Source: Bacteroidota bacterium
GTDB lineage: Bacteria; Bacteroidota; Ignavibacteria; Kapaibacteriales; UBA2268
DNA: 64,000 nt
Direction: 5' to 3'
NCBI GenBank assembly: GCA_004322215.1
Contig: SCSM01000039.1
Location: forward strand, 96,744-160,743
The first letter of the stretch is position 1. Every line of letters begins with the position of its first letter. A program made the translations under genes and the position numbers. The notes beneath the pieces were generated by a model. The model did no database searches, was not told where the DNA came from, and saw only the letters and a list, made by a program, of their open reading frames with translations. Shown one piece after another: positions 16,336 to 41,350 of the stretch.

Positions 16336-16380
16336 ATAAATCTATATTTATTTATTTAATTTCAACATTATTAATATATA

Positions 16381-17172: not shown

Positions 17173-17655
17173 TTAAATATCAAGTGAATCCCTTGCCATG
17201 TTTTTTGCCGACTCAATAACCGAGGCATTTGCTTCGAATCCACGCTGTGCCGAAATCATTTCCACCATTTCTGTGACAATATTAATATTAGGCATAGCGA
17301 CATATCCATCTTCATCTGCATCGGGATGAGATGGGTCATAAATCATTCTCGGGGGAGAATCATCTTTAGCCAAATGTGCCTCCAAAACATTTGAATACGG
17401 ATTTCCTTCTGCATATTCATTTCCGGTATGAATGTTTTCAGAGCCGGTTAAGCTTATTTGGCTATCCAGCTCATCTTCGAAGGAATTATTCTGAACAGCA
17501 TTGACAATCACAATATCACGCTTATACGGCAGTCCATCGGGACCCTTTGTCGTGTTTGCATTCGCAATGTTATTCGCCACGGCATTGAGCCGCATTCTCT
17601 GCAAACTCATACCCTTTCCGCTTATTTCAAATGTTGAAAATATGTTTTCTGACAT
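17173..17655 (-). CDS. flgC: Flagellar basal-body rod protein FlgC
   Basis: 160 aa. Rod-protein N-terminal motif (LNAVANNIANANTT) and FlgC C-terminus. Confidence 0.9.
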   Translation of the reverse strand: MSENIFSTFEISGKGMSLQRMRLNAVANNIANANTTKGPDGLPYKRDIVIVNAVQNNSFEDELDSQISLTGSENIHTGNEYAEGNPYSNVLEAHLAKDDSPPRMIYDPSHPDADEDGYVAMPNINIVTEMVEMISAQRGFEANASVIESAKNMARDSLDI

Positions 17656-17668
17656 ATTCCTTCCTTTT

Positions 17669-18094
17669 TTAGTATTTCAACCCGGTAATTGCATTTTGCA
17701 TACCCTGAAAATAAGACTTTACAGTACGGGCGGCAAACCTGTACCGTATCTGGTTCTGTGCCAGTTCAGCCATCTCCTTATCAATACTGACATGGCTTTC
17801 ACCGGAACTATATAATTCCGGTTGAGGCACTTCAGGTACAGTTACCATCGGATTAACATCATTATCCCCGACATTAGTACCGATTGGAATGTGCTTCTCA
17901 TTCGTTACCTCACCCGTTGTCGAAGTCATTGCCTTATTAAACAACTCCTCGAACTTCACCTTTTCGGGCTTATAGTCCGGTGTCGTTACGTTAGCAATGT
18001 TCTTCGCTATCGTTCTTTGCCGTAAAGCATAGGCATCGAGCCCCCTGTTCAATAAAGGAAGCCGGTTCCTAAACAAATACTGACGGTATATCAA
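17669..18094 (-). CDS. flgB: Flagellar basal-body rod protein FlgB
   Basis: 141 aa. N-terminal rod motif (RTIAKNIANVTTPDYK). First gene of the operon. Confidence 0.85.
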   Translation of the reverse strand: MIYRQYLFRNRLPLLNRGLDAYALRQRTIAKNIANVTTPDYKPEKVKFEELFNKAMTSTTGEVTNEKHIPIGTNVGDNDVNPMVTVPEVPQPELYSSGESHVSIDKEMAELAQNQIRYRFAARTVKSYFQGMQNAITGLKY

Positions 18095-24337: not shown

Positions 24338-24575
24338 TGAAAGAGAATAAAAATGAAAATAATAATTTTAATTCTGATTGTCATTGGCGGCAATTTATTC
24401 GCACAAGATATAATTGAACCACCTAAACTTCAGGATTATACTGATACTACAATTTTTGACTGAGATTTCGGACAAAACCATTTTATTAAAGAATGGAACT
24501 GGGGGGCATGTCGCGAAAGATTTAGATGAAGTTTTGAATATGAATTATAACCAATACAAATTTAAAATAACTAAA

Positions 24576-24603
24576 AGGGGTTTTGCCTGCAAGCAAAGCC
24601 CCT
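24576..24603 (-). terminator. Rho-independent terminator after the 95-aa minus-strand ORF
   Basis: 11-bp stem (AAGGGGTTTTGC / GCAAAGCCCCT) with a 6-nt loop, followed on the minus strand by a T-rich tract. Confidence 0.5.
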
Positions 24604-24638
24604 CAATAACTAATTCATATCAAAACAATAATTGGGAA

Positions 24639-24926
24639 TTATGAATGTGTTACAAGCAATTCCTTTTTTGGCGTCAAAATCGAGAGAAAGCTGTCTAAAA
24701 ATTTATAATCCAGCACTTCCTTGTTCTCTTTTTCGTTTATCTTCACCGTTTCTTTCTTGCCGTAGCTAACCGTAAAGCTCTCACTCGAAATTGGTGCTAA
24801 CCAGGAAATTTCTTGGCTGTTTTTATTTTCTTCCTCTTGCTCCGGCTCTTTTCTTTTAATTTTGCTGAATGCAAAGGAAGCGTATTCAAACTCGTTTATG
24901 TATGTGTAATCATCAAATATTTTCAT
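24639..24926 (-). CDS. Hypothetical protein (95 aa)
   Basis: ORF bracketed by a downstream terminator and an upstream structured inverted repeat. No recognisable domain. Confidence 0.3.
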   Translation of the reverse strand: MKIFDDYTYINEFEYASFAFSKIKRKEPEQEEENKNSQEISWLAPISSESFTVSYGKKETVKINEKENKEVLDYKFLDSFLSILTPKKELLVTHS

Positions 24927-25334
24927 TTTCTTACCTTTTTTTCCCTTTTTTAAAATAAATGCCTGGAATTTGGGGTTAGGTTATTTATATGATCTGTTAA
25001 TCAAGGGTTTTTGAGGACAATCCCAGGCATCTAAATTTCAAAAGTACAATTCTATTATCAATCACAAAGAAAATTGTATAATTTTCTAAAACTAAATAAC
25101 GGATTATTTGAAAAAAAGATTATAGTTGTAAACGTGATTTTTTTGTAGAAAATACGTGAAACTTTTTGTAGGATATTTTGCTCTGACAATGTAGCAATTA
25201 CTACTACAATTTATTATTTTTCAGTTATTTATGTATTCTTTTCCGATAATAAAAATATTCTAATTTTCTTATGATTAGGTGTAAAAATCGAGATATTTTA
25301 ATAATATCAATTTCAAATAATAATCCTAATAAAA

Positions 25335-27962
25335 TCAATAGATTAAAATTTTACCGGTCTTGTAATAACTATTTATGTTTATAAAATAAAAATATACACC
25401 GATTTCTAATTTTGAGCAATCTATAATAGTTATATTATTCCTTAGGTTTTTAGTCAATACTTTCCTTCCTGTCATGTCGTACATTACGAATTGAAAAATT
25501 AAATTATGAACTCCCGCATTGACGATAATTTTTTTATTTCCGCAATAATTAAATGTGATTCCCTTTTCAAAATCCTGTTCTATACCATTGGGTTTGACGG
25601 TAGTAAATTTCCAGGTATCGGACCAAGCACTTGAATCATTGTTGCCGAATGCTTTTACATGCCAATAATAGGATGTATTAAAAGCTAAATCATTATAGTT
25701 TAATTTAGCGGAATCAATTCCATTAACATTTAAAATATTATTTAGGAAATCGGGATAAATCGATAATTCGACATTATAGCTTGATGCATTCTCAGCATGC
25801 TCCCAAATCAGATAGCCATTCAAGGGTACATTACCAGAATCATTTATTGGTGAAATTAAAACCGGCGATGCAAGCGTCCTTGTTACTTCAGTGGTTAATT
25901 TGAAGGGAACTGACCATTCACTTTCATTATCGAAATTCATAGCTTTAATCCGCCAGAAATAAATCCTGCTGTTTTCAAGAATGGCTTGATTAAAGATTGT
26001 GTCGGTTATACCTGTTTCATCAGTTATTAGTGAGTCGAAATCCGGTGTCTTCGAAATGTTTATTTTATAGTAGGTTGCTCCTTCGACAGAATTCCATATA
26101 AATATTCCTTTAACTGAAAAATCATTATTCTCATCTAATGGATATTTCAACTCAGGAGATTTTAATAAAGTTGTAAAAGACCATGAATCTGACCAATTGC
26201 TTTCATTCTCATCATATAATGATTTCATACGCCAGAAATAAGTCGTATTATTTTTCAGTTGCTGATATTTGAAGGTTGTATCTGATGTAATTAATGAATC
26301 GATTAGAACTTTAGAAAAATCAATATTATTTGATATTTGTAATCTATATGAAACTGCACTGTCAATATTTTTCCAAACAAAATTCGGCGAAACAGTTATT
26401 TTCTTTGAATTATTTACAGGGGAAATCAGTAAGGGTGATTCATAAATTTGGGGCTCAGCAAGTATAAATTCACCGAATGTGCTAATGGATGCTTCGAGTA
26501 AACCTTGCTGAGCATTATAAGTAGTAGGTAATTCCTTGAAGTTCCCCATTCCTTCCTGTTGGCGCCAATAAATTTTATTTTTTTCCGGTGATTTGAGTGA
26601 GTCAATGGCTGATAATCTGAAAATGATTTTTCCTGTGAAGCCGGTAATTCCTTTATTATTTAGAACCCATCTATTGCCGTAAGTAATTAACGGAGGTAGA
26701 TTTTCGTATGAAACATTATGCGGTGAATAGTAATGTCTCTCAGTAGAAACATAACCGGAACCGGTCAGGGACTGAATGTTTAATTCAACGGCTGTATTAT
26801 TATCAGAATCGTTGAAATTAAAGTTACCGGAATTTTGCATAAATAAAATTTTTGATGCCATGATTATAGGATAACGCATAGCCATATAGGATTCCAAGTT
26901 TCTCGCTTCGATAGCTCTTGTACCGTCGGCTCTTACTTCGACAAAAGTCATTTGCTGCAGATTAGTACCCCAGCCGATTAATGTATTTCCATTGGGAAGC
27001 CGCTCAACACTACCTTGAGACATTGTATAAACTGAGGGGAATGGGTTATATTCCCAAACTTTGCGAATTGTTTTATTTACTTCATCTATTTCGTATTCTA
27101 CAGCTCTCGATTGCTGAAGAGGATTCATGTTCCCATTGTCAAACAACAGAATATTGCCGTTTGGCAACCTATGAACAGAGTGCTGATGCGAAAATCCCCA
27201 AAACCCGTCAATTGTATCATTTAAAAATGTAAATTGATTATTCTTGCATTTTTTTCCTCCAAGACGCCAAATAATATTTCCCGATTGCTTTTCTATTTTT
27301 GTTATTTCATCCAGGTTTCTTTCAGATATAAGCAAATTACCGTCTGAATCCACCTCAAAACTATTTATGTGTACCCATGCAATATTTTGTTGGGTCAGAT
27401 CTATATCAGAAGTTGCATCGGTTACCTGTAAATGGTCTAATGCATGCCATTCCCAAACAACATTTTTATTTTCATCCTGTTCCTGTAATGCAAAGGATAT
27501 TAATACGGCATCAGGTTTTCCTCCCGGATAGATTGAACTCATATCAACAGTATCATATTCAATTCCAAGGAGTAAACCATGTCCATTATTCAAAAGTTTA
27601 AAGTCATGGAAATCGGTTTCAAGTCCGTTCTTACATGCGAAACTGTCAAGTAAATCGAGATTACGGTCAACAACATAAAATTTATTTCTGGCAAAATAGC
27701 TTAACTTCACGTTTTCTTGTTGACTAAAACATCTTGCATTGACATTTCTCTCAATTCTTTTTTTAAATGCAATTTTACCCGAATTGTCAATTAATGTGAG
27801 ATAACCCTGCTGGTAAGAATCTAATAACAAATAACCTGGTGCTGGATTATCTAATGTAATTACTGTTAAGTCAAACTGTGAATATGATGGTAAAGTACTT
27901 ATAATTAAAATCAAACAAAAAATAATTACTTTATAAATATCCGATAATTTCTTTATTTTCAA
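25335..27962 (-). CDS. Secreted arylsulfotransferase (ASST)-like beta-propeller protein with 3 Fn3-like repeats and T9SS C-terminal domain (paralog 1)
   Basis: Signal peptide. ~470-aa beta-propeller with NPAPGYLLLD, FWGFSHQHSVHRLPNGNILLFDNGN and LPNGNTLIGWG motifs. Three ~95-aa repeats ending YFWR(M/I)K...WS..W.FTT. C-terminal sorting domain (...KTGKILIY). Confidence 0.5.
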   Translation of the reverse strand: MKIKKLSDIYKVIIFCLILIISTLPSYSQFDLTVITLDNPAPGYLLLDSYQQGYLTLIDNSGKIAFKKRIERNVNARCFSQQENVKLSYFARNKFYVVDRNLDLLDSFACKNGLETDFHDFKLLNNGHGLLLGIEYDTVDMSSIYPGGKPDAVLISFALQEQDENKNVVWEWHALDHLQVTDATSDIDLTQQNIAWVHINSFEVDSDGNLLISERNLDEITKIEKQSGNIIWRLGGKKCKNNQFTFLNDTIDGFWGFSHQHSVHRLPNGNILLFDNGNMNPLQQSRAVEYEIDEVNKTIRKVWEYNPFPSVYTMSQGSVERLPNGNTLIGWGTNLQQMTFVEVRADGTRAIEARNLESYMAMRYPIIMASKILFMQNSGNFNFNDSDNNTAVELNIQSLTGSGYVSTERHYYSPHNVSYENLPPLITYGNRWVLNNKGITGFTGKIIFRLSAIDSLKSPEKNKIYWRQQEGMGNFKELPTTYNAQQGLLEASISTFGEFILAEPQIYESPLLISPVNNSKKITVSPNFVWKNIDSAVSYRLQISNNIDFSKVLIDSLITSDTTFKYQQLKNNTTYFWRMKSLYDENESNWSDSWSFTTLLKSPELKYPLDENNDFSVKGIFIWNSVEGATYYKINISKTPDFDSLITDETGITDTIFNQAILENSRIYFWRIKAMNFDNESEWSVPFKLTTEVTRTLASPVLISPINDSGNVPLNGYLIWEHAENASSYNVELSIYPDFLNNILNVNGIDSAKLNYNDLAFNTSYYWHVKAFGNNDSSAWSDTWKFTTVKPNGIEQDFEKGITFNYCGNKKIIVNAGVHNLIFQFVMYDMTGRKVLTKNLRNNITIIDCSKLEIGVYFYFININSYYKTGKILIY

Positions 27963-28011
27963 TTAATCCACTTATTTTTTAATTTTACAAAATTATTTTT
28001 AATTGATTACC

Positions 28012-30633
28012 TCAATAAATTAATAACTTACCTTTAACGATACTATCGATTTGAATAATTGTATAAAAATAAATACCTCTTTCTAAATTATAACAATCAA
28101 TAATTGTCTTATAATCAGTTAAGATTCTTCTAAGAGTAATTCTCCCGGTAATATCGGCAATTATTAATTCCGTATTATTATTAAGATTTTCAATATTTAT
28201 AAATAATTTGTTATTACTTTCATTATAAATAATAAAATTATTTTCATTATCAGATACAACAGAACCATAATTTTGAGTTCTGAATTTCCACGTCACCGAC
28301 CAGGAACTTGTGTCAAATTGGTTAGAAGCTGCCACATGCCAATAATAAACTGTACTATAATTTAAATCAGAGTAATACATATTGGTTGAATTTATACCAA
28401 TTTGTGATATTTTTTTTACAATAAAATTTGAATCAATTGACAGTTCAATTTTATAAGACATTGCATTTTTAACCTGATACCAATAAAGAAAACCAAATAA
28501 AGGTATGTCTGTTGTATCGTTAGCAGGTGATTGTAAAATCGGTATATTCAGGACTTGATTTATTTCAGTCATGAATATATTTATATTAGACCAGGAACCT
28601 TCATTATTGGAATTTAATGGCTTAACACGCCAGTAATAATATTTGTTGAAATCCAGGGGAGTTAGAGGGCTGAATCTTGTGATAGTTACATCTGATTTAT
28701 TTACAACTATAGAATCGAAATCGGGGTCTAAGGATATATTAATTATGTATTTATCTGCTCCTGGTACTGAATTCCATTCAAATATTCCCTTAACTTGAAA
28801 TTCTGTTTCACGATTGGCTGGTTTAATCAATTCAGGTGTTTTCAACAAAGTAGTAAAAGACCATGGATTTGACCAATTTGTTTCATTACCGTTAGTAACA
28901 GATTTGAGTCTCCAATAATATATTTTATTATTTTCAAGTCCGGTTAATGCTAATGTTGTGTCTGCTGTCAATCCTGTGTCAACAAGGTTTACATTAAAAT
29001 TGATGTCAGTTGAAACCTGGAGTTTGTATGAATCGGCTCCGTTAAATTTATGCCATAATAAATATAAAATTATCGGATTCTTAGTTGAACTGTCTGCCGG
29101 AGATATTAACAATGATGTCTGAGAATCAAGTGGTACTCCTAAAATGAATTCTCCGAATGAAATTATATTAGCTTCGAGTGTCGACTGAGATTGATTATAC
29201 GTTGTCTCCAAAAGTGAAAATTTACCGCTGCCTTCCTGTTTACGCCAATAAATTTTATAATTCTTAAGTGAATCAGTACTGACAATTTCTGATAATTTGA
29301 ATATAATCTTAGCTGTTAATTGGCTTATACCTTTATTGTTTAATACCCATCTGTGTCCGTAAGTTTTTACAGGTGCTAATCCATCATAAGCTATGTTGTG
29401 TGGAACATAATCATGCCTTTCGACTGACACATAACCGGAATCCGTCAAACCATAAATGTCTAATAATACACCTGTTTTGTTACTTGTGTCTGAAAAGTTG
29501 TAAATTCCGGCATTCTGCACCATTATTAGTTTCGAAGCCATAATTATCGGATACCTCATTACCTGATAAGATGAAAAATTCTTTGCCTCCATTGCTTTCG
29601 AGCCGTCAGGCATAACTTCGGTAAAAGTAATCTGTTGAGTATTTGCTCCCCAACCAATAATTGTATTTCCGTTTGGAAGTCTTTGTACACTACCCTGAGT
29701 GATAGAATAAATATCCGGAGAACATCTGTATTCCCAAACTTTTTTTACAGTCTTGTTTACCTCATCGATTTCATATTCAACAGCACGTGAATATTGAATT
29801 GGTTTCAGATTTCCATTATCGAACAGAAGGAGGTTCCCGTTAGGGAGCAGGTGTATTGAGTGCTGGTGCGAAAATCCCCAGAAACCATCAATTGTATCAT
29901 TTAAAAAGGTGAACTGATTGTTCTTACATTCTTTACCGCCAAGACGCCAGATAATCGCACCTGTCTGCCTGTTAATTTTTGTTATTTCATCCAAATCACG
30001 GCTCGAAATGAGGACATTTCCATCATAATCAATTTCAATACTATTAGTATGGACCCATGACACATTTTGCTGAGTTAAGTCAACACTTGAAGTAGCATCG
30101 GTAACCTTATAGTGGTCTAAAGTATTCCATTCCCAAATGACATTTTTATTTTCATCCTGCTCCTGAATAACAGAAGACCTTAGTACAGCATTGGGTTTTC
30201 CCCCAGGAACAATTTCACTCAAATCGACAGTATCATACACATTACCCAGAAAAAATGCATTGCCGTCATTTGTTAGCTTAAAGTCGTGGGGATCAATCAT
30301 TAAAGAGTTTTTTATGACGAAACTATCGATAAGATTAAGACCATTATCAATCGCATAAAATTTTAAATTTGTATAGAATGTTAATAAATCATTCTTCTGA
30401 ATGTAAAGAACATCCCCTTTTTGGAAATTTTTCAATTTATCATTAATAACCGCAAATCCCGAATTATCAGTTATTGATAAATATCCATCCTCGAAGGTAT
30501 CCATTAAGAGATAACCTGGTGCAGGATTGTCGAGTGTTAATACTGTAATTTTATTTTGGGATAAAATTGAATAATTATTAATTATTAATAATAAAATTAT
30601 AAATAAATTAATATTTAAAAGATATTTTTGCAT
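28012..30633 (-). CDS. Secreted ASST-like beta-propeller protein with 3 Fn3-like repeats and T9SS C-terminal domain (paralog 2)
   Basis: Same architecture as paralog 1, with similar but clearly non-identical sequence (NPAPGYLLMD, FWGFSHQHSIHLLPNGNLLLFDNGN). Confidence 0.5.
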   Translation of the reverse strand: MQKYLLNINLFIILLLIINNYSILSQNKITVLTLDNPAPGYLLMDTFEDGYLSITDNSGFAVINDKLKNFQKGDVLYIQKNDLLTFYTNLKFYAIDNGLNLIDSFVIKNSLMIDPHDFKLTNDGNAFFLGNVYDTVDLSEIVPGGKPNAVLRSSVIQEQDENKNVIWEWNTLDHYKVTDATSSVDLTQQNVSWVHTNSIEIDYDGNVLISSRDLDEITKINRQTGAIIWRLGGKECKNNQFTFLNDTIDGFWGFSHQHSIHLLPNGNLLLFDNGNLKPIQYSRAVEYEIDEVNKTVKKVWEYRCSPDIYSITQGSVQRLPNGNTIIGWGANTQQITFTEVMPDGSKAMEAKNFSSYQVMRYPIIMASKLIMVQNAGIYNFSDTSNKTGVLLDIYGLTDSGYVSVERHDYVPHNIAYDGLAPVKTYGHRWVLNNKGISQLTAKIIFKLSEIVSTDSLKNYKIYWRKQEGSGKFSLLETTYNQSQSTLEANIISFGEFILGVPLDSQTSLLISPADSSTKNPIILYLLWHKFNGADSYKLQVSTDINFNVNLVDTGLTADTTLALTGLENNKIYYWRLKSVTNGNETNWSNPWSFTTLLKTPELIKPANRETEFQVKGIFEWNSVPGADKYIINISLDPDFDSIVVNKSDVTITRFSPLTPLDFNKYYYWRVKPLNSNNEGSWSNINIFMTEINQVLNIPILQSPANDTTDIPLFGFLYWYQVKNAMSYKIELSIDSNFIVKKISQIGINSTNMYYSDLNYSTVYYWHVAASNQFDTSSWSVTWKFRTQNYGSVVSDNENNFIIYNESNNKLFINIENLNNNTELIIADITGRITLRRILTDYKTIIDCYNLERGIYFYTIIQIDSIVKGKLLIY

Positions 30634-30776
30634 ATTAATGATTAGTATAAAAAATTTCTAATTTATATTTGATTAGCAAATGAATTCAATATAAAAAAAG
30701 ATTATATATATTTAAATTGATAATCATATATAATAAAATATTTAAAAATTAACTGCTTCATTTATATAGCTATTTA

Positions 30777-32840
30777 TCATCGTAAAATATAAATTTTCCC
30801 ACATACTGTACAATTTGAATATTGCATCCTATAAAAATAAATACCATTATTCAGATTATTAAATTTTATTTCACAAGTGTTTAAGAACGATATATTTATT
30901 GACGAAGCCATTTGTACCGGGTTACCTAAAATATCAAACAATGTGATATTAATTTGACCGGGATTGTTATTAATTTTTAAAATTAATCTGTCTTCATATT
31001 GAAAGACAGAAATATCAGATTGAATTATTTTATCATCAATTGTCGTTAATGGTATTGTGGTAAACATCATTGTTTCAGACCAGGAACTATGTCTCTCATC
31101 ATAAAATGCCATCACACGCCAATAATAAATTCGATTGTAATTCAAAATGACATCGAGATGATTATTGGTAATATTAGATGAATCAATTACTAATTCAGTA
31201 AATTCAGGGTTCAGTGATAGTTGGAGACGAAACTCCGAGGCAAATGAAACCGGCTGCCAAGTAATTTTTGTATTTATACTTACATCCTTTTCATTATTTG
31301 CAGGAGAAATCGTAATAGGTGCCATTATTGAGTCCGTCATTCCGATAATAAACTCACCGGTACTCTTAATTTTTGCTTCCAAGCAATTAAAGTTTGGGTT
31401 GTAAGTTGTCTTTAATTGTTCAAAGTTGCCATCACCTTCTTTTTGCCGGAAAAAGATACTTTCATAATATGATTCACTGGAAGAATAACCATATAGATAA
31501 AATCTGATTAGAGCATCTATATCATTGCCATTATTAGAGGAAAGCACCCATCTGTTATCAAATATCTCTGTAGGGTTTTGTCCTGAAAATATTAAATTAT
31601 GGGGTAAATAATCATGCTTTTCGATTGAAATCAATCTTGCATCTTTTATATTATTAATTTCTAATTTAACATCAGTAATATTAGTATCGGATGAGAAGTC
31701 ATAAATTCCGGGTTTATCGGCAAATAATGTTACAGCATGCATTTTGTATATGTATTTATAAACTGCATAATTCTGATAATCGCTAATTTCCAAAACTTTT
31801 TTCCCATCAGGAGTTACTTCTGTCGCCGTCAGATTGTCAGAATTCAAACCCCATCCAATCAGAGTATTCCCGTTAGGAAGCCGCTGAACATTACCCATAG
31901 AATAAGAATTAAAATCAGGGGATAAAGAATATTCCCACACCTTTTCTATTGTTTTATTTAACTCATCAATTTTGTACTCAACTGCTCTTGTGTAGGGTTT
32001 TGGTTTTAAATCTCCATTATCGAGCATGAGCAGATTCCCGTTTTGTAATCTTAGCACTGAGTGTTGATGCGAAAATCCATAAAATCCGTTTATTGTATCA
32101 TTAAGAAATCGAAATTGATTATTCTTACAAGTTGCACCGCCGAGACGCCAAATAATATTACCGGACTGCCTGTCTATTTTTGTAACTTCATCGAGAGCCC
32201 TGCTTGAAGCAATTATATTGCCATCCGTATCATAAAAAATGGAATTCATGTGACAGGATATAAAAGAATTTTGGTTAGTATCAATTCCCGGGACCATATC
32301 AGACAGTTTGAAATGGTCGAAAGAATTCCAATTAAATATTAAATTTTTATTTTTGTCAAATTCCTGAATGACATTGCCGATTACCTGTATATCTTTGTGT
32401 CCGCCCGGAATAATATTGCTTAAATCCATGAACCTGACTTCACGTCCTAAAATTGCCGTGTTACCGTTTGGTAGAAATTTTATATCATGGAAATCAACTT
32501 CATAATTACCAACACAATTAAAACTATCAATTAATTCATAACTATCATTCATAAGATAATACTTGTCTCTCGAGAAAAAACTAATCATTCCATTGGGTTG
32601 AACTTTAGGATTCAGAAATTCATCGAATTGTCTCAAAGTTTTTTCAAAAACCGGTTTACAGGTGTTATCAACTATATAAAACTTTTGGGAGTAATGAGGA
32701 GTTAAGAAAATATAACCGGGTGATGGATTATTATATAAATCTAACTTATACGGAGGCGTTGTTTGAGCAAATAAATGACAAACCAATATTAAAAACACAA
32801 ATACATGAGAAAAAACTGTCTTCATTTCAAAAAACCTCAA
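30777..32840 (-). CDS. Secreted ASST-like beta-propeller protein with 1 Fn3-like repeat and T9SS C-terminal domain (paralog 3)
   Basis: NNPSPGYIFL, FYGFSHQHSVLRLQNGNLLMLDNGD and LPNGNTLIGWG motifs. The start is probably the internal MKTVFSHVFVFLIL signal peptide. Confidence 0.5.
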   Translation of the reverse strand: MRFFEMKTVFSHVFVFLILVCHLFAQTTPPYKLDLYNNPSPGYIFLTPHYSQKFYIVDNTCKPVFEKTLRQFDEFLNPKVQPNGMISFFSRDKYYLMNDSYELIDSFNCVGNYEVDFHDIKFLPNGNTAILGREVRFMDLSNIIPGGHKDIQVIGNVIQEFDKNKNLIFNWNSFDHFKLSDMVPGIDTNQNSFISCHMNSIFYDTDGNIIASSRALDEVTKIDRQSGNIIWRLGGATCKNNQFRFLNDTINGFYGFSHQHSVLRLQNGNLLMLDNGDLKPKPYTRAVEYKIDELNKTIEKVWEYSLSPDFNSYSMGNVQRLPNGNTLIGWGLNSDNLTATEVTPDGKKVLEISDYQNYAVYKYIYKMHAVTLFADKPGIYDFSSDTNITDVKLEINNIKDARLISIEKHDYLPHNLIFSGQNPTEIFDNRWVLSSNNGNDIDALIRFYLYGYSSSESYYESIFFRQKEGDGNFEQLKTTYNPNFNCLEAKIKSTGEFIIGMTDSIMAPITISPANNEKDVSINTKITWQPVSFASEFRLQLSLNPEFTELVIDSSNITNNHLDVILNYNRIYYWRVMAFYDERHSSWSETMMFTTIPLTTIDDKIIQSDISVFQYEDRLILKINNNPGQINITLFDILGNPVQMASSINISFLNTCEIKFNNLNNGIYFYRMQYSNCTVCGKIYILR

Positions 32841-32960
32841 GCAAAATAATTATGCTTCAATGTAAATATATAATACCTACGTAATCGTTTTTTATATTAT
32901 TACTTCTTACTTATAGTAATAACTGTTTTTTTTCAATTTTGTTACAGAGATTTTTTTCAA

Positions 32961-33497
32961 TTAAATTATTTCATTGTTTTTTAAATAACTTAATACTACC
33001 CTAACGCAATCATCGGGTGACTTATTTTCTGTATTAATCATAATGTCGGGATTCTCCGGCTTTTCATAAATTGAATCGATTCCGGTAAAATCAATAATCT
33101 CTCTGATTCTTGCTTTTTGATAAAATCCTTTCGGGTCTCTTTTTTCGCATACATCAAACGGAGTGTTTACGAAAACTTCAACGAAATGAAAATCAGACAA
33201 TATGCTCCTCGCCGACTGCCTATCCTGTATGAATGGTGAAATTAATGCACAAATGGCATTAACACCTGACAATGCCACAAGTTTTGCCATTTCTGCTGTC
33301 CTGCGAATGTTTTCTTTCCTGTCTTCATCGCTGAAACCCAAATCTTTACTTATTCCTTTACGCATGGTATCACCATCGAATAAAACCGAGGAAACCCCCC
33401 TGGTTAGTAATGCTCTTTTCAAATGCTCGGAAACGGTGGTTTTCCCACTTGCCGAAAGCCCTGTGAACCAAATAACAAATGGTTTTTTATTTTCCAT
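32961..33497 (-). CDS. cysC: Adenylyl-sulfate (APS) kinase
   Basis: 178 aa. P-loop (FTGLSASGKTT). APS-kinase core (DGDTMRKG ... RRTAEMAKL ... ALISPF). Makes PAPS from APS. Confidence 0.85.
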   Translation of the reverse strand: MENKKPFVIWFTGLSASGKTTVSEHLKRALLTRGVSSVLFDGDTMRKGISKDLGFSDEDRKENIRRTAEMAKLVALSGVNAICALISPFIQDRQSARSILSDFHFVEVFVNTPFDVCEKRDPKGFYQKARIREIIDFTGIDSIYEKPENPDIMINTENKSPDDCVRVVLSYLKNNEII

Positions 33498-33500
33498 ATC

Positions 33501-34583
33501 TTAATTTAAAAAAGTGTTATATATATTAGAGTAATCGTTTCTTATTCTTTCTTCAGTCAATCCAAATTGTTCAAGTGAATATTTATGACCGCTTTTGTGA
33601 CTTCTTTGCTTTTCGGCAGTAGAATTTATTTTGTTTAAAAGTTCGGCTGATTCATAAACATTTATAAAATTCAATATTTCATGCATCTCTATTTCGAATT
33701 CATTCATCATCCTGTCGTATCTGACTATTTTAATTTTTTCTTTAGGAAATTTCCCATTAACATAATCATCATGGAAACGAGTACTTAATTCCAGCAATGC
33801 AGAGTAAAGCCGTTCTATATAAAAATCCCTTTTGTTTTTCGGAAGTTTCCAGAATCCGAATCTTCCGTCGAGAACACCAGTTACGAGACTCAAGCCGGAA
33901 GGTACTGTTTCCAGTGGGTCTCTTAATGTATATAATATTTTAGCATCGGGAAAATATTCCAGGAACTTCGGTAATCGCACCCCAAGCGAAAATAATTTAC
34001 CGATAATCTGTTCATGATTTTCGCTTATTAAATTCCGTTTCCAAATTTTTTCAAACCATTTAAAGTCACGTTTGGAAGTATCCCTGATATTTGGGTCAAA
34101 ATATGTACTTAAATCTTCTTTTGCCCAGGCAAGAAAAAAACCGTAAACAAAAAAATCGTCAAAGAAATGGAAAAGCAATGAGGGGTCATCAGTTTCGATT
34201 GCCCTCAGATTTGTTTCGTGTGCAGCATGAGAATGGAATCGTGCGGGACTAATCTTTTCCATTAATGTAACAAATGGCTTGAAAATAAATTGAAGTGTCA
34301 ATGAAGGAAACAACATTTTCCATAGCTGCATTCCGACACCAATTTTTTGGTTAACCAGAAATCTCTGTAAAAAAGTTGTGCCGCTGCGGGGATTTCCGAC
34401 AATGAAAACAGGATTATTGATTTTTTTTCCTGACAATGACGGATAAAATAAATTATCGAGAATCATTCCAACGTTTACAATCAGTCTTAGAAAGAGCAAG
34501 CCGCTATAGGTGAATAAAGGTGCAAACGGTTTATGAAATGTTGAAACGATTGAAAAATATGACCTGAACATATTTCTTAACAT
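33501..34583 (-). CDS. PAPS-dependent sulfotransferase family protein (Sulfotransfer_3-like)
   Basis: 5'-phosphosulfate-binding loop (IVGNPRSGTTFL). 3'-phosphate-binding RDP motif (TLRDPLETVPS). 360 aa, with a hydrophobic N-terminal segment. 3-nt gap to cysC. Confidence 0.7.
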   Translation of the reverse strand: MLRNMFRSYFSIVSTFHKPFAPLFTYSGLLFLRLIVNVGMILDNLFYPSLSGKKINNPVFIVGNPRSGTTFLQRFLVNQKIGVGMQLWKMLFPSLTLQFIFKPFVTLMEKISPARFHSHAAHETNLRAIETDDPSLLFHFFDDFFVYGFFLAWAKEDLSTYFDPNIRDTSKRDFKWFEKIWKRNLISENHEQIIGKLFSLGVRLPKFLEYFPDAKILYTLRDPLETVPSGLSLVTGVLDGRFGFWKLPKNKRDFYIERLYSALLELSTRFHDDYVNGKFPKEKIKIVRYDRMMNEFEIEMHEILNFINVYESAELLNKINSTAEKQRSHKSGHKYSLEQFGLTEERIRNDYSNIYNTFLN

Positions 34584-34595
34584 GTGTGCCTCATT

Positions 34596-35564
34596 TCAAA
34601 ACCTAAATAATGTAAAAGCAACGGACAAACCGGCACCTGTTCCGCCTAAAATGCACAAATCACCACGGTTAATTTTACCAGCTTTATGATAGATAGCCAA
34701 TGTCAACGGAATAGAAGCAGCAATGCAATTTCCATATTCTCTAATAATGTTGGCGACCTTTTCCATCCTGAACCCGTATAATTCTGCAGCTTCCACAGCG
34801 TGGCCTGATGCCTGATGCGGTATAAGCCAGTCAATATCTTTTGCTTTCAATTTATTTCTATCAAATAATTCTTTCAATGATTTTTTCACGCTACCTAAAG
34901 CAAACCTGTACACTTTTGAACCTTGCATCGTGAATAAATTATCTTCTGGTTTGGTTAATGTCGGATGGTCAGGTGGATGCTTAGTACCTCCACCACGAAA
35001 TTCTGTCAATTCAGCACCTTTGGGCCATGTGTTCATTTGCCAATCCAACAAAGCACTCGATTCATCCTTCGGAGTCGGTTCAATAACAACAGCAGCTGCG
35101 GCATCGCCGAAAAGTGATGCACTTTCGGGTTCATTCAAATTTCTCCAATGAGTGCCGGTTTCAGAAGATACAATCAAAATACGTTTGAATGTTCCGCCCT
35201 GAATCAATGCAGCAGCAGTATTCAAAGCGACAACAAATGAAAGGCATGTGGAATGGATTGACCATGAAGGAATTCCTTCATATCCTAATGCTCTTTGTAT
35301 GAAAACCGAACTGTCGGGAATTAATTGCAAGGGTGTAGTTGAGGCGTTAATAATGCAATCAGGAGAAGGACCTCCATTTAATGCCTGACTGGCAGCTTTT
35401 GCTGCTATCACATCCATCGGCTCTTCTGCAATTCTTCTTTCAGATATTCCTGTTCTCGATATAATCCATTCTTCACTTTGACCGATTAATTCAGCGAGGT
35501 CCGCAGATGTCTGAATACGTGGGGGAATATAAAACCCCGTAGAAACTATTTTTATGTTATACAT
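34596..35564 (-). CDS. FabH-like beta-ketoacyl synthase III / thiolase-fold condensing enzyme
   Basis: 322 aa. FabH-type N-terminus (VSTGFYIPPRIQTSADLAELIGQSEEWIISRTGI). Cys-His-Asn triad context (IHSTCLSF; IPHQASGHAVE; YGNCIAASIP). 12-nt gap to the sulfotransferase gene. Confidence 0.7.
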   Translation of the reverse strand: MYNIKIVSTGFYIPPRIQTSADLAELIGQSEEWIISRTGISERRIAEEPMDVIAAKAASQALNGGPSPDCIINASTTPLQLIPDSSVFIQRALGYEGIPSWSIHSTCLSFVVALNTAAALIQGGTFKRILIVSSETGTHWRNLNEPESASLFGDAAAAVVIEPTPKDESSALLDWQMNTWPKGAELTEFRGGGTKHPPDHPTLTKPEDNLFTMQGSKVYRFALGSVKKSLKELFDRNKLKAKDIDWLIPHQASGHAVEAAELYGFRMEKVANIIREYGNCIAASIPLTLAIYHKAGKINRGDLCILGGTGAGLSVAFTLFRF

Positions 35565-35626
35565 TCAATTACACTCTTAGTCAATTTTAAATTATTGTCG
35601 TATGATTACATTATTATCACATTCCG

Positions 35627-38167
35627 TCATTTTATTATTACAATTTTTCCTGTCATTGAATTAATTCCGTAATTTATCCGGTAAATGTAATTACCGCTCT
35701 CAAGTGCTGATGCATCCCATTCAATATTATTATTTCCTGCCGTAAGAAATCCCTTGAAAACCACGGATGATTCCCTGCCGAACATATCATAAATTTTAAT
35801 GGTTGTTTCACAATTTCTATCAATTTTGAATTTGAATTTAATTCTATGATTGGCTGGATTTGGATAATTTATCGTTTCAATATTGTTATCTTTATCATCT
35901 GATTCATTGACTCCGGTAGGAGCTAATTTTATAGTAAAGTCAGAATCGCTTTCCGTATAAAATGAACTGTTTTTAAGACTAATTATCTTAATTCTGTAGG
36001 TTGAATCAACTGGTACATTTTTTGGAATTTTCCATGCATAAGCGTTTGTATAGCTGAATAAAGTATCTTCTATAACAGTCTGTTTTATTCCATTTCTGAA
36101 AAGAGTAATTGAAACTGAATCAGGGAGATTGGTTTTCCATCGAATAATGTTGGACACAGTGTCAATAAACCATGTTTCACCCCCGTTGGGTGTTACGAGT
36201 TCAATTAAAGGTTCTTTCAATGAAAAACTGTGAATATCCGACCAATCACTTGCCAATTCATTATAAATTGTTTTTGTTCTCCAATAGTAAGTTTTATTAC
36301 TCTCAAAATTTTCTTTTACTATTGGTGTTTTGATTTCAGAATTATCAATTATATTTTTTGTGAATAGCGAATCATCTGAAACCTGTAATTGAGATTTATC
36401 ATATCTGCCGGTTGGACTCCAGATAAGTTTAACAGGTTCGCTATCGATTAAAACCTGTTTGTCAATTGGTGACAAAAGAGACGGGGGTAAAATTTCATTC
36501 CCGTTTCTTTTGAAACCGATTACAAATTCACCATGGTCTGATATATTTGCCACAACCTGGTCTGTATTCTCATCGAAGTGTGATGATAGTTCGGTGAAAG
36601 TACCGGATGCTTCAGTTTGTCTATAATATATCTTCAGGTTGTCAGGGTTAAACCGTGGTGGTAGTTCTTTAAAATCAAATCTAATTTCTCCATCGAATGA
36701 TAAAATTTCCTGGATATCAATTACAAATCTGCATGGCATTAAAACCGGAGCTTCACCAAAGAAGTTTACATTAATCGGAGGACAGTCAAACTTTTTCACA
36801 TTAACAGTATTGTATAAAAATCCATTTAACTTATTAAAGTAGATTTCGACCCCTGTCTTTTCGTTGTTATTATCAAATTTATAAGTATTTAATTCCACAA
36901 CTTCAATTTTATCAACATTAGCAACAGCAAGGCATAAAGGGAACTCATATTTTGAAGCTCTGTAACTAAAAGCATCAGATGGCAGAGATAATTCATAAGC
37001 AATTTTATTATCGGGTGTAACTTCAGTAATCGTTCTGTGAAAACCACTAAAAATCAAACCCCAGTTAATTAAAGTATTGCCATTAGAAAGTCTTTGTGCC
37101 GAACCCATAGCATATCCTGATATATCAGGTGTATGCCTGAATTCCCAAACTAATGAAGCGGTCTTATTAGTTTCATCGAGTGAATATTCAACTGCTCTTG
37201 AATACCATGGGATTTTATATGGACCATTATCATAAAACAGGAGATTTCCATTGTCGAGCCGTTTTACATCATGCTGCATGGAAAAATAATCCGGTGCATT
37301 TTCTTCATGTTCACCTGAAATATTAAAATCATTTTTTAGACCGCCCAATCTCCATAAAATTTTTCCTGAGACCATGTCAATTTTAATTATCTCGGCAGTA
37401 GCCACAAGACTTACAATCAGGTTACCATCGGTATCAAGGTAAAGAGAACTAACATGAGCATGTTCAAATGAAGCATTCTTCAGATTATCCCTCGAATCAG
37501 TTATCGGATAATGGTCTAAACTTCTCCATTGGAAAACACAATTTTTATTATTGTCCAATTCCTGGATTACAGTACCTATCACTTTTGCATTAGGATTACC
37601 ACCTTCAATTACTCTGCTCATATCAATATAATTATTATCATAACTTATCAATAAGTAATGACCATTTGGTAACATTTGAAACTCATGAAAATCTGCAAGG
37701 TATCCGTTTTGCATCTGAACAGAATCAATAATAGTGAATGAAGAATCCAAAATATAATTGATTACATTAAAATTTTGAATCATTAATGGTCCTGACTGGG
37801 TACCTGTTCCTATGAAGGAAGGGCTTGCATAAGAGAATAATCCGTTAGGTTCCGGCTTGAAATCAATACCTGCAATTTGTGGCTTGTTATAATAATATGG
37901 ACTACCTGTGCTATCGAGGACTAAAATATAAAAAATTGATTTTGTAACACCGAGGTTTTCCATGAAAATAAGCCCACGTGCCGGATTGTCTGATGTATTT
38001 ACTGTGATTGAAGGGAAGTCTGCTGGTAGTGTATCAGTTGTTGCGGTTAATAAAGATGGTTCTGTCAATCCGTATTTATCAAAATTGTACACTTCTGATT
38101 TTGCATGGAATACTTGTGTACTTAACAGAATTGCAGATAACATCACACACCTGATACTCGTCATCAT
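35627..38167 (-). CDS. Secreted ASST-like beta-propeller protein with 2 Fn3-like repeats and T9SS C-terminal domain (paralog 4, divergent)
   Basis: DNPARGLIFM, SMQHDVKRLDNGNLLFYDNG and LSNGNTLINWG motifs. Fn3-like repeats (YYWRTKTIYN...WS). C-terminal domain (NYPNPANHRIKFKF...KIVIIK). Confidence 0.45.
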   Translation of the reverse strand: MMTSIRCVMLSAILLSTQVFHAKSEVYNFDKYGLTEPSLLTATTDTLPADFPSITVNTSDNPARGLIFMENLGVTKSIFYILVLDSTGSPYYYNKPQIAGIDFKPEPNGLFSYASPSFIGTGTQSGPLMIQNFNVINYILDSSFTIIDSVQMQNGYLADFHEFQMLPNGHYLLISYDNNYIDMSRVIEGGNPNAKVIGTVIQELDNNKNCVFQWRSLDHYPITDSRDNLKNASFEHAHVSSLYLDTDGNLIVSLVATAEIIKIDMVSGKILWRLGGLKNDFNISGEHEENAPDYFSMQHDVKRLDNGNLLFYDNGPYKIPWYSRAVEYSLDETNKTASLVWEFRHTPDISGYAMGSAQRLSNGNTLINWGLIFSGFHRTITEVTPDNKIAYELSLPSDAFSYRASKYEFPLCLAVANVDKIEVVELNTYKFDNNNEKTGVEIYFNKLNGFLYNTVNVKKFDCPPINVNFFGEAPVLMPCRFVIDIQEILSFDGEIRFDFKELPPRFNPDNLKIYYRQTEASGTFTELSSHFDENTDQVVANISDHGEFVIGFKRNGNEILPPSLLSPIDKQVLIDSEPVKLIWSPTGRYDKSQLQVSDDSLFTKNIIDNSEIKTPIVKENFESNKTYYWRTKTIYNELASDWSDIHSFSLKEPLIELVTPNGGETWFIDTVSNIIRWKTNLPDSVSITLFRNGIKQTVIEDTLFSYTNAYAWKIPKNVPVDSTYRIKIISLKNSSFYTESDSDFTIKLAPTGVNESDDKDNNIETINYPNPANHRIKFKFKIDRNCETTIKIYDMFGRESSVVFKGFLTAGNNNIEWDASALESGNYIYRINYGINSMTGKIVIIK

Positions 38168-38209
38168 TTCTTACTCCTCAAAGCTATAAATCTATTTCCA
38201 TTTTTAAAA

Positions 38210-41071
38210 TTATCTGGTTACACTCATTTTTCCAGAATATGTTCTTCCATTCACATTCAATTGGTAAATGTATATACCTGGCTTCAAATTTGAAATATCA
38301 TAATCAATTATGTATGTTCCGTTCAGTAGTTCAAAATTAAATAAATCTTCAATATTTCTACTATTCAAATCGAAAATTAGCAGATTAACTTTTGAAAATT
38401 TATTAAGATAAAATTTGAAAGATGTTTTATAATCAGCCGGATTCGGATAGTTTTGATACAATATGACATCTTCATCATTATATGTTATCTCATTTTCGAC
38501 ATTTAAAACAGGTGATACGGAGAACTTACCGCTTTCACCAAAGATTTGACTATTATATTTACTTGTAATGACAATCGAATAATTCGAATCATAAGGAAGC
38601 GATTGAGGAATCAACCAGGAATAAGCTCCAATCTGACTCAGGAGTGAATCTTTAATGAGCTGGTAATATTTGCCGTTTTTGAATAATTCTAATTTAACTG
38701 TATCATCAATGTTTTTTTTCCAACGAATGATATAATAAAGAGTATCACGATAAATTGCTTCACCTTCTGCCGGATTTGTAATTTCAATGAATGGTGGCGA
38801 AAGAGTAAAGCTCCATGTTTCCGACCATTCGCTCACACCAGCTTCATTAATACATTGGACTTTCCAAAAATATTTTTGACCCTGATTCAGCTTCAAAATA
38901 TTTAATGTGAATACTTTTAAATTTGTATCAATGATAATTCCAGATGAAAATGTTGAATCAGTTCCGACAACTAAATGTGAACTTTTGCTGTAACCTTTTG
39001 TTGTCCAGTTTAATTGAACAGTTGAATTTTGGTTAACACTGTAATTATTCAATGGACTTATTAATTTTGGAGGTAGCGGTTTTTGTGAAAATTCGGGTAT
39101 GCAGAAAATGAAATCGCCGAAATTATCTGTGTTTACAATAAGTTCGTTTGACGATGGGTCATAAAGTGTCGAAAGTTGTTTATAATATATTGATGTATCG
39201 TTTGGTTTATTATAGATAACTAATTCCTGTAACCTGTTCAAATCCGGAAAATCAGCCACATTAAATCTGATTTCACATTCAACCGAATCAATCATAGTAG
39301 TAGTCATCTTTACCCTGTAAGGAAATACAAGCGGTGCTTTATCTTCAAAGACCGGTTTGATAGGCCCACACTCATATCTTTCTGCCTTCAATCCATTATA
39401 AAGAAATCCGACAAGCTTTTTAAATTTTATAATAATGCCGATGTTATCTTCATGCAGTGGATATGTATTGCCTTCGAGGAGCTCATAAATGGTGACCTGG
39501 ATGGGCTCGCATGAAGGCCAGGGATATTTCAGAACTTTCATTGAGTGCTGACCTGATGGAAGTGAAAATTCCATCGCAATAGTATTATCAGGATGAAGTT
39601 CTGTTGCAGTTATTTCTTCATTCTCAGAGTGCTGCCCCCACGAAATCAATTTTCCACCATTTTCAAGTACCTGGAATGAACCATCTGCATAAGAATAAAT
39701 ATCTGGATTATGCCTGTACTCCCAAATAAGTTCACAGGTTTTATCCGATTCATCCAATTTATATTCCACAGCTCTCGAATATTGAATATCGTGCTGTTTC
39801 CCGTTATCAAATAAAGTTATGTCCCCGTTTTGCAATCTTTGTACATGATTCTGGTACGAGAAATAGTTTGGTGCATTTTCTTCGTGTTCACCAGTGAAAG
39901 TAAAATCGTTATTCCTGCCTCCGAGTTTCCACATAATCTCACCGGTTTCCCTGCTCACTTTAATAATATTGCTCAAATTACTATTTGACAAAAGAAGGTT
40001 TCCATCAAAGTCAAGAACAATGTTATCTGTGTGAATATAATCCACAATCTGAGTAGTCAGTGATTCATAGGTTTCAGTTACCGGGATATAATCGTTAGAC
40101 CTCCAATTGAATACAACATTATTATTTTTGTCGAACTCCTGAATAACTGAAAATTGCAAATATCCGTTTGGATTTCCTCCGGGTGTAATCAAGCTAAAAT
40201 CATAAGGTATTATGTTGTAAGATAATAAAATTCTATGGCCATTCGACAAAAGGAGAACATCGGCATTAACAGATGAATTTTTATCGGCACCAACTATACT
40301 ATCAACTGATTGTAAATTATTATTCAGAATAATAACTTTTGTTGAATTATCGTCGAACAACTGATGAACAATCTGACCATTTGTTTCACGCTTGAAATTA
40401 AAAGCAATTCCATTAGTTTGAGCACCAATTTTCTTATAAGCGGCAATTTTACCCGTATTATCAAGTAGTATAAGATAATTTGAATAATTCGATTTGACTC
40501 CATAATCGGGAATATTTGTCAGGTAATAATAACCGGGAGCAGGATTTTCAGAATAATTTGTCTTAATAAAAGGGAAATCTGAAGGCAAAGAATCATCATT
40601 TAATAAAAAAAAGTTCTCCGGTGTAAAGTCTCTATCCCTAATTTCACATTCTTTACTTATATTATCGCAATTGAGAGGCACAGTCAACGGCGAAACAAAA
40701 AAACGAAATGAAAAAGGATCGAGTTCGTTACCCGAAAGTGTCTTCACACCGGAGTTAAAATTAATTACAACAGTTTCACCAGCCGTAAACGGAATATTTG
40801 GTTTGAAAACTATTGTTTTATTGTCGTCAGAAAAATTAAAACCCCCTTCATGTTTACCCGATTTATTTCCAATAACAGAAATGGTATTTATGCTTAGTGT
40901 TTTTAAATCTATTTTTTCTTTGTATCTAAATATTAAATTTGTTTTATTGTAATTATTGCGTGATTCGGGAAGCGGATATAAATATTGATAAGAACAAATT
41001 TCGGAATATAATTTTAATTCAACGAATATTAAAAGAATTAATATTACATTAAATAATTTCATATTGCACAC
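38210..41071 (-). CDS. Secreted ASST-like beta-propeller protein with extra N-terminal Ig-like domain, 2 Fn3-like repeats and T9SS C-terminal domain (paralog 5, divergent)
   Basis: ENPAPGYYYLTN, SYQNHVQRLQNGDITLFDNG and LENGGKLISWG motifs. Additional ~150-aa N-terminal beta-sandwich. C-terminal domain (YQNYPNPADYKTSFKF...KMSVTR). Confidence 0.45.
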   Translation of the reverse strand: MCNMKLFNVILILLIFVELKLYSEICSYQYLYPLPESRNNYNKTNLIFRYKEKIDLKTLSINTISVIGNKSGKHEGGFNFSDDNKTIVFKPNIPFTAGETVVINFNSGVKTLSGNELDPFSFRFFVSPLTVPLNCDNISKECEIRDRDFTPENFFLLNDDSLPSDFPFIKTNYSENPAPGYYYLTNIPDYGVKSNYSNYLILLDNTGKIAAYKKIGAQTNGIAFNFKRETNGQIVHQLFDDNSTKVIILNNNLQSVDSIVGADKNSSVNADVLLLSNGHRILLSYNIIPYDFSLITPGGNPNGYLQFSVIQEFDKNNNVVFNWRSNDYIPVTETYESLTTQIVDYIHTDNIVLDFDGNLLLSNSNLSNIIKVSRETGEIMWKLGGRNNDFTFTGEHEENAPNYFSYQNHVQRLQNGDITLFDNGKQHDIQYSRAVEYKLDESDKTCELIWEYRHNPDIYSYADGSFQVLENGGKLISWGQHSENEEITATELHPDNTIAMEFSLPSGQHSMKVLKYPWPSCEPIQVTIYELLEGNTYPLHEDNIGIIIKFKKLVGFLYNGLKAERYECGPIKPVFEDKAPLVFPYRVKMTTTMIDSVECEIRFNVADFPDLNRLQELVIYNKPNDTSIYYKQLSTLYDPSSNELIVNTDNFGDFIFCIPEFSQKPLPPKLISPLNNYSVNQNSTVQLNWTTKGYSKSSHLVVGTDSTFSSGIIIDTNLKVFTLNILKLNQGQKYFWKVQCINEAGVSEWSETWSFTLSPPFIEITNPAEGEAIYRDTLYYIIRWKKNIDDTVKLELFKNGKYYQLIKDSLLSQIGAYSWLIPQSLPYDSNYSIVITSKYNSQIFGESGKFSVSPVLNVENEITYNDEDVILYQNYPNPADYKTSFKFYLNKFSKVNLLIFDLNSRNIEDLFNFELLNGTYIIDYDISNLKPGIYIYQLNVNGRTYSGKMSVTR

Positions 41072-41350
41072 TCCCTAAAACCATTCTTCATGCTAATGAC
41101 TGTTTATGTTCTTAATAATTGGCAATTAATGAAATATTAACCAGTAATCATATAATTGTTATTGTGATTTTTTTGTAGGATAATATATATTAAATATGTA
41201 ATAGTCAATACTATTAAATATGTAGTAATTCATAATTTTAGATGTAAAGTTAAATACTACATATAAAAATTTTTAAAACATTATTAATTTAAAATATATT
41301 TCTGAAACATTATGTAAATTTTTACGTTTATTGTAAATTTATATTGTTAA

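Follow-up and report, generated by a model that had tools for sequence, protein, structure and literature searches.

To our knowledge, the only established chemistry of aryl sulfate sulfotransferases (ASSTs) is the ping-pong transfer of a sulfuryl group from an aryl or enol sulfate donor, and the only established physiological case is the relay of caprazamycin (Cpz) biosynthesis, which includes the type III polyketide synthase (PKS) Cpz6. The two-step sulfation of caprazamycin and liposidomycin was reportedly described by Tang et al. 2013, Nat Chem Biol 9:610. As outlined in PMC4257720 and PMC4924298, Cpz6 forms 3-methyl-4-hydroxy-6-alkyl-alpha-pyrones, Cpz8 sulfates them with PAPS (3'-phosphoadenosine 5'-phosphosulfate), and Cpz4 uses the resulting esters as donors; as acceptor, Cpz4 prefers a sugar hydroxyl (PMC13426309). 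A 2026 review regards the natural substrates and roles of bacterial PAPS-independent aryl sulfotransferases as unknown, Cpz4 excepted, and the physiological donor of Escherichia coli AssT is likewise unknown (PMC13426309). Here we describe a locus of comparable composition in a window of 64,000 nucleotides (the whole stretch of DNA analyzed: assembly GCA_004322215.1, contig SCSM01000039.1, positions 96,744 to 160,743) from a bacterium of the GTDB lineage Bacteroidota, Ignavibacteria, Kapaibacteriales. A condensing enzyme of the ketoacyl synthase III (KAS III) fold, a predicted PAPS-dependent sulfotransferase, and an adenosine 5'-phosphosulfate (APS) kinase are encoded as a tight cassette within an array of five ASST-like genes, and the partnership of ASST-like protein, sulfotransferase, and KAS III is not peculiar to this organism. 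From sequences, structure models, and analogy, we judge it moderately probable that the locus encodes a Cpz-like, two-compartment donor relay in which a KAS III related to MxnB and CorB replaces the type III PKS.

The cassette runs on the minus strand in the order KAS III (34596..35564, 322 aa), sulfotransferase (33501..34583, 360 aa), and APS kinase CysC, which converts APS to PAPS (32961..33497, 178 aa), with gaps of 12 and 3 nt. Two ASST-like genes lie upstream of it and three downstream, and according to the map of open reading frames (ORFs) the eight genes are co-directional, span 25335-41071, and are separated by gaps of 3-143 nt. A first-pass annotation of the window had placed a three-gene cassette with these gaps between ASST-like paralogs 3 and 4, as the ORF coordinates confirm; its remark that cassette and array share a strand also holds, although it needed the correction that this is the minus strand. 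Like the Cpz6/Cpz8/Cpz4 system, the window clusters a condensing enzyme, a PAPS-dependent sulfotransferase, matched to Cpz8 by role, and a PAPS-independent transferase of the ASST type. Unlike that system, its condensing enzyme is a KAS III and thus analogous to Cpz6 in function at best, the host is a Gram-negative member of the Fibrobacteres–Chlorobi–Bacteroidetes (FCB) group and not an actinomycete, the module lies outside any antibiotic gene cluster and is kept across several phyla, and five exported transferase paralogs of the type IX secretion system (T9SS) are found in place of one.

The condensing enzyme matched PF08545 (E 5e-18) and PF08541 (E 2.5e-23), had no signal peptide, and carries the triad C107/H250/N279, which was invariant in the alignment of its clade. 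The first-pass annotation was right about this FabH-type Cys-His-Asn triad, but its description of the enzyme as FabH-like gave way to an MxnB/CorB-like assignment. The protein stayed under every NCBIfam fabH cut-off (TIGR00747, 222.8 vs. 292.1 bits; PRK09352, 241.4 vs. 249; PRK07204, 245.2 vs. 402), and its best relatives in the PDB were MxnB (4V2P, E 9e-52) and CorB (4YUC, E 1e-50), the top FabH structure reaching 5e-44. Similarity to OleA was weak (about 44 bits), the type III PKS model DpgA gave 19 bits, and no type III PKS is present at the locus. We computed a neighbor-joining tree with 200 bootstraps from all KAS III genes of related loci and five references (the FabH proteins of E. coli, Aquifex, and Bacillus, plus MxnB and CorB). 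The sulfotransferase-linked KAS III genes were monophyletic in 200/200 replicates and, again in 200/200, sister to MxnB/CorB and apart from the three FabH references; a second, FabH-like KAS III found in some Marinimicrobia loci was placed elsewhere. The clade shares with MxnB and CorB an insertion (GAExxExRGGG...PEDN) and the motifs STCLSF, PHQAS, and GNCIAAS, and it has Thr at the position of MxnB T322, where FabHs have Phe or Met; in MxnB this residue lies at the junction of two substrate tunnels (PMC5724707). With the missed cut-offs, the separation in the tree, and a context unlike the plsX-fabHDG-acpP type of E. coli, as Pfam scans of the window's ORFs found no fab genes, we rejected a housekeeping FabH.

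MxnB and CorB turn two acyl chains into an alpha-pyrone (PMC5724707, PMC4578411), and by triad, clade, and signatures the window enzyme appears to be of their type and may perform the same two-chain reaction. In contrast to the window's setting, MxnB and CorB join two PKS carrier-bound beta-keto chains in the myxopyronin and corallopyronin pathways (PMC5724707). The minimal cassette of the window would need stand-alone chemistry like that of PpyS and PyrS (photopyrone and pseudopyronine), where one ketosynthase makes dialkyl-4-hydroxy-alpha-pyrones from fatty-acid intermediates (PMC4578411). PpyS itself is OleA-like and takes a catalytic Glu from the partner subunit, whereas the window enzyme falls on the MxnB side. 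At a Ketobacter locus, a gene for a fatty acyl-AMP ligase fused to an acyl carrier protein (FAAL-ACP) adjoins the KAS III/sulfotransferase pair. We also noted two KAS III genes (L091 2051-2995 and L093 2895-3875) whose products are 39-40% identical to the window enzyme and which stand beside reductases of the NAD-dependent epimerase/dehydratase type (short-chain dehydrogenase/reductases), one of them fused to a metallo-beta-lactamase domain, with no sulfotransferase beside either. These look like a different, uncharacterized KAS III system, and the pairing with reductases means that the sulfotransferase-linked clade is narrower than "MxnB-like" in general.

The sulfotransferase matched PF13469 (E 9e-18) and PF00685, and its PSB loop (GNPRSGTTF, residues 63-71) and RDP motif for the 3'-phosphate (residues 221-223), both present as first annotated, were invariant in 26 family members. 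Its N-terminal helices are hydrophobic, without a signal peptide. The closest folds to its AlphaFold2 (AF2) model (predicted local distance difference test, pLDDT, 89.7) were mycobacterial Stf1 (TM 0.71) and Stf9, at about 16% identity in the structural alignment, followed by the TPSTs and the sulfotransferase domain of CurM, every one of them a user of PAPS. No NCBIfam model matched, those for glycan and lipopolysaccharide (LPS) types included, and with Stf1 and Stf9 as the nearest structures the protein is not of a glycan/LPS type. Motifs and model together assign the protein as a PAPS-dependent enzyme of the Stf type. Family members, whose identity to the window protein is 53-81%, occur in Ignavibacteriota, Kapaibacteria, KSB1, Marinimicrobia, Myxococcota, Gamma- and Alphaproteobacteria, and Fibrobacterota-like metagenome-assembled genomes; the closest relatives are labeled Ignavibacteriae.

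The third gene is cysC, as the first-pass annotation had it: the product matched PF01583 (E 3e-59), passed the TIGR00455 cut-off (219.5 vs. 138.7 bits), and has the P-loop GLSASGKTT. In relatives the supply of PAPS goes further. A cysD gene and a cysN-cysC fusion directly follow the KAS III and sulfotransferase genes at three loci (L009 11137-13934, L007, and L011) and lie further away at a fourth (L010), and other relatives have Sat-CysC fusions near the cassette. PAPS supply is thus part of the module; the sulfate-activation pathway is whole in cassettes of the L009 type, and the window keeps cysC alone.

All five ASST-like proteins matched PF05935 (E 5e-15 to 5e-35) and PF14269 and begin with a signal peptide. 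Their C-termini align, and the T9SS C-terminal domain PF18962 scored above its cut-off of 27 bits in paralogs 4 (42.7), 5 (28.5), and 3 (27.1) and below it in paralogs 1 (23.2) and 2 (18.6). Five residues, H118, H176, H197, R214, and H260 (HHHRH), were invariant in an alignment of 42 family members, and the last three correspond to His356, Arg374, and the nucleophile His436 of E. coli ASST. Read from an alignment of the five paralogs together with mapping onto the hidden Markov model (HMM) of the family, this set is intact in paralog 1 (25335..27962, 875 aa) and paralog 2 (28012..30633, 873 aa), each with three FN3/Ig-like repeats, and in paralog 3 (30777..32840, 687 aa from a TTG start and 682 aa in the NCBI call), which has an FN3-like domain. 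Paralog 4 (35627..38167, 846 aa), directly upstream of the KAS III gene, has HHHVH, with Val at the Arg374 equivalent, and in paralog 5 (38210..41071, 953 aa), which carries an N-terminal Big_5 and Ig-like domains, the set has degenerated to AYHSN with four of five residues lost; paralog 5 is probably noncatalytic. An ASST-like gene with this Arg replaced by Val, Leu, or Met also stands directly upstream of KAS III in several related FCB-group loci, and a proteobacterial neighbor has Pro.

The propeller of paralog 3 is predicted to be six-bladed and Cpz4-like (AF2 pLDDT 92.6). Its top PDB match was 9KF4/9KF6, identified as Cpz4 from the description in the fold search (phmmer E 2e-23, Foldseek E 4e-24), with E. 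coli ASST next (1e-6 and 4e-15), so that no other solved structure is as near to the protein as Cpz4. The window proteins share with E. coli AssT (PDB 3ELQ, with DsbL/DsbI) the beta-propeller, the equivalents of His356/Arg374/His436, and the extracytoplasmic location, but they are only about 17% identical to it in the structural alignment and add Ig/FN3 domains and T9SS tails. We know of no donor-synthesis genes linked to E. coli AssT. The best match by both sequence and fold and the catalytic set kept in three of the five paralogs support the earlier view of these proteins as sulfotransferases. Nonenzymatic propellers were considered as well, and with the catalytic set intact in paralogs 1-3 we rejected them except for paralog 5.

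The two kinds of sulfotransferase are predicted to work on opposite sides of the membrane. No signal peptide was found at the N-termini of KAS III and sulfotransferase that were examined, namely those of the window and of three proteins from two further loci, while the ASST-like partners read carry export signals: Sec signals and a T9SS tail in the window, lipoprotein signals in Proteobacteria, and Sec signals with T9SS- or dockerin-like tails in Marinimicrobia. In the proteins examined, PAPS-dependent enzymes thus appear to be cytoplasmic and PAPS-independent transferases exported. PAPS is cytoplasmic, and with the transferases exported a carrier is needed. In the proposed relay, the MxnB/CorB-like KAS III would condense fatty-acid-derived thioesters to a small, lipophilic phenol or enol, for which an alkyl-4-hydroxy-alpha-pyrone is the likeliest candidate; with PAPS provided by CysC, the Stf-type sulfotransferase would sulfate the hydroxyl of this product to give an activated enol or aryl sulfate. 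The ester would leave the cytoplasm, and Cpz4-like propellers, which Sec would export and the T9SS display or release, would take the sulfuryl group from it and pass it to hydroxyls of extracellular or surface glycans or to phenolics. Glycans are as plausible acceptors as phenolics because Cpz4 prefers a sugar hydroxyl and some relatives carry CBM4_9 modules. A single donor cassette could feed several transferase paralogs in this way.

To see how widely the genes are linked, we fetched 80 genomic loci via the sulfotransferase, scanned them with the window proteins and the ASST HMM, and counted the 50 that have 3 kb or more of flanking sequence on each side. An ASST-like gene was found within 10 kb of the sulfotransferase in 41 of the 50 and within 300 bp in 33, and an MxnB-like KAS III was present in 30 and adjacent in 20. 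These loci come from Ignavibacteriota, KSB1, Marinimicrobia, Myxococcota, and Gamma- and Alphaproteobacteria. As a control we used FabH-like metagenome loci obtained in a scan based on the KAS III alignment, where one generic pattern drew mostly ordinary FabH; a sulfotransferase or ASST-like partner was found in none of these 78 loci (just under 0.7 Mb), whereas the only two metagenome loci whose KAS III reaches 48% identity or more both carry the sulfotransferase (2/2). The recurrence across phyla and the absence from the control indicate that the juxtaposition in the window is not due to chance. The pairwise identities of sulfotransferase and KAS III were correlated (r = 0.86, reached by 0 of 2,000 permutations), a value to which shared species history contributes. 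Three layouts were seen: in Ignavibacteriota, KSB1, and other FCB members, T9SS ASST arrays surround KAS III followed by the sulfotransferase; in Proteobacteria, these two genes face a convergent gene for an ASST-like lipoprotein; and in Marinimicrobia, a divergent ASST-like gene is followed by the sulfotransferase, a START protein, an outer-membrane-barrel-like protein, and KAS III, with MMPL, LolA-like, and TetR genes near the cassette.

The relay interpretation, put forward as a candidate in the first-pass annotation, is supported by these findings: three contrary outcomes named beforehand (a condensing enzyme grouping with housekeeping FabH, a sulfotransferase grouping with glycan/LPS types, and ASST-like proteins that are not sulfotransferases) were looked for in sequences and models, and none appeared. 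Several observations nevertheless weigh against it. Paralogs 4 and 5 are atypical, and the five proteins are therefore not all ordinary ASSTs. The substrates of MxnB and CorB are chains bound to PKS carriers, and the window was found to hold neither a PKS nor an acyl carrier protein. Functional plasticity is known among KAS III enzymes, some of which are acyltransferases. Pfam found no ATP sulfurylase in 48 of the 54 window ORFs of at least 110 aa (the six unscanned include overlapping opposite-strand ORFs), and when Sat-CysC fusion proteins of related loci were compared with every window ORF of 70 aa or more, the cysC ORF was the sole match; a lipid exporter was also absent from the scanned ORFs of the window. 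The lack of an ATP sulfurylase had been noted in the first-pass annotation and stands, but its description of the system as self-contained has to be given up for the window, whereas relatives carry cysD and cysN-cysC or export-type genes. No ASST-like gene lay within 10 kb in 9 of the 50 sulfotransferase loci. Conversely, one locus has four tandem ASST-like T9SS genes of about 584 aa (L089 10001-17273) and has neither a KAS III nor a sulfotransferase within 10 kb of them, and a 2.2-Mb contig (L088) has a lone ASST-like T9SS gene with no cassette nearby; transferases far outnumber donor cassettes. Finally, the KAS III tree had a small reference set, and the identity to MxnB/CorB (about 35%) exceeds that to the nearest FabHs (about 33-34%) by a small margin. 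The latter figures, the canonical triad, and a near-threshold FabH score (241 vs. 249 bits) would also suit an accidental neighborhood, in which the KAS III is a FabH paralog of fatty-acid initiation while the sulfotransferase and CysC act on a cytoplasmic glycan or LPS precursor. We give this hardly any credence and regard it as largely refuted: all fabH cut-offs were missed, the enzyme was set apart from the FabH references in every replicate and has MxnB-specific indels, no fab genes are nearby, and the linkage of three partners is kept across at least five phyla, with none in the FabH control.

The export-type genes near related modules bear on another explanation, that the end product of KAS III and sulfotransferase is a sulfated lipid (an alkyl pyrone or a beta-keto or hydroxy lipid sulfate) serving as an outer-membrane lipid, surfactant, or signal, while the ASST-like proteins remodel or remove its sulfate or act elsewhere. 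In other lineages, genes for MMPL, LolA-like/DUF1329, START with a signal peptide, barrel-like, DUF1302, and FadL proteins stand beside the module, and in Marinimicrobia and other FCB loci the set of MMPL, LolA-like, START, barrel, FadL, and TetR genes resembles lipid export. The hydrophobic N-terminal helices of the sulfotransferase also speak for this explanation, and mycobacterial sulfolipid systems resemble the locus in that Stf1 and Stf9 are its nearest sulfotransferase structures and MMPL transporters occur in many related loci. Those mycobacterial Stf/MmpL systems, however, have no ASST partner and the sulfolipid is their end product, whereas here intact, exported, PAPS-independent transferases adjoin the sulfotransferase in 33 of the 50 loci and a single cassette sits within multiparalog arrays, neither of which a sulfolipid end product explains. 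The export genes would suit an exported donor equally, and the established chemistry of ASSTs is solely transfer from an aryl or enol sulfate; we thus consider a sulfolipid end product unlikely. A flow in the opposite direction is distinctly improbable, though ASSTs are reversible ping-pong enzymes with many phenolic donors (PMC13426309) and their arrays occur without a nearby cassette. Here the exported enzymes would move sulfate from environmental aryl sulfates onto a phenol or pyrone derived from KAS III, for scavenging or detoxification, with the cytoplasmic sulfotransferase as a parallel, PAPS-based route to the same compound. This needs two independent routes to one product, and the dedicated genes for PAPS supply that are linked to the sulfotransferase (cysC, and cysD and cysN-cysC in relatives) argue for an outward flow from PAPS. 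The donor relay is the most economical reading because the only established ASST chemistry uses an aryl or enol sulfate donor and the only established physiology is the Cpz relay.

A wider extrapolation, which we offer tentatively and rate somewhat below an even chance, is that the module represents a phylum-spanning sulfate shuttle of diderm bacteria: a lipophilic, pyrone-type carrier would be charged from PAPS inside the cytoplasm, exported by way of MMPL, LolA-like, START, and barrel proteins where these are present, and discharged by surface or secreted Cpz4-like transferases onto glycans or phenolics. If so, it would be the long-sought physiological donor system of bacterial aryl sulfotransferases and a path by which abundant uncultured groups, Marinimicrobia among them, could make sulfated extracellular polymers. 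We found no description of a module of ASST, KAS III, and sulfotransferase in the papers searched, searches in Marinimicrobia, KSB1, T9SS, and sulfated-pyrone contexts included. The window locus and its relatives suggest that a relay of the Cpz type is not confined to actinomycetes and may be a general answer to sulfation outside the cytoplasm, where PAPS does not exist. With the three-gene cassette and the defined transferases, the identity of the natural donor can be put to a direct test. If the relay is real, it bears on how Marinimicrobia, KSB1, and Ignavibacteriota cycle sulfur and organic matter, on the origin of sulfated extracellular polymers, and on biocatalytic sulfation with a donor that can be biosynthesized.

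Two further gene neighborhoods were recorded among the relatives. In about 42-44 loci of the Marinimicrobia type (e.g., L048 11683-13107 and L066 11076-11678), the sulfotransferase gene is followed by one for a secreted START protein of about 200 aa and then by one for a conserved 474-aa protein that has a signal peptide and ends in YFF. The latter had no Pfam or PDB match; it looks like an outer-membrane barrel and is called barrel-like because of the signal peptide and the YFF alone. On two metagenome contigs from ENA (L085 and L086), ASST-like T9SS proteins encoded beside the KAS III/sulfotransferase pair are fused to CBM_4_9 modules, which hints at glycan acceptors, and genes for a TonB-dependent receptor, FadL, DUF1302, and MMPL proteins are found in the same neighborhoods.

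Within the window, the intergenic region 41072..41350 separates the eight-gene block from divergent M16 peptidase genes on the ORF map and, by its position, is likely to hold the promoter of the block. Scanned for promoters and terminators, the AT-rich stretch at 24.3-41.5 kb gave no useful signal (121 promoter-like matches vs. 92 expected, and 9 terminator-like vs. 7.5). The window contains no tRNA genes or Rfam matches, and none were found in the approximately 1 kb 3' of the last ASST-like gene (24338-25334), a region of about 28% GC without an ORF of more than 95 aa. The remaining content consists of flagellar genes, M16 peptidases, and housekeeping genes. At 818-4325, an HdrA-like flavoprotein fused to an MvhD/FlpD domain is encoded beside another FAD oxidoreductase; a protein resembling CoA-disulfide reductase with a C-terminal rhodanese domain lies at 50665-52356, and a 922-aa T9SS protein with GH20 domain-2 as its sole match at 47783-50551. 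The flagellar cluster on the minus strand at 5433-18094 encodes an FlgE-like hook protein, FliK, the FliI ATPase, FliG, FliF, and rod proteins. Together with the many proteins bearing T9SS C-terminal domains, it is typical of Ignavibacteriota rather than of Bacteroidota, while the NCBI label reads "Bacteroidetes bacterium."

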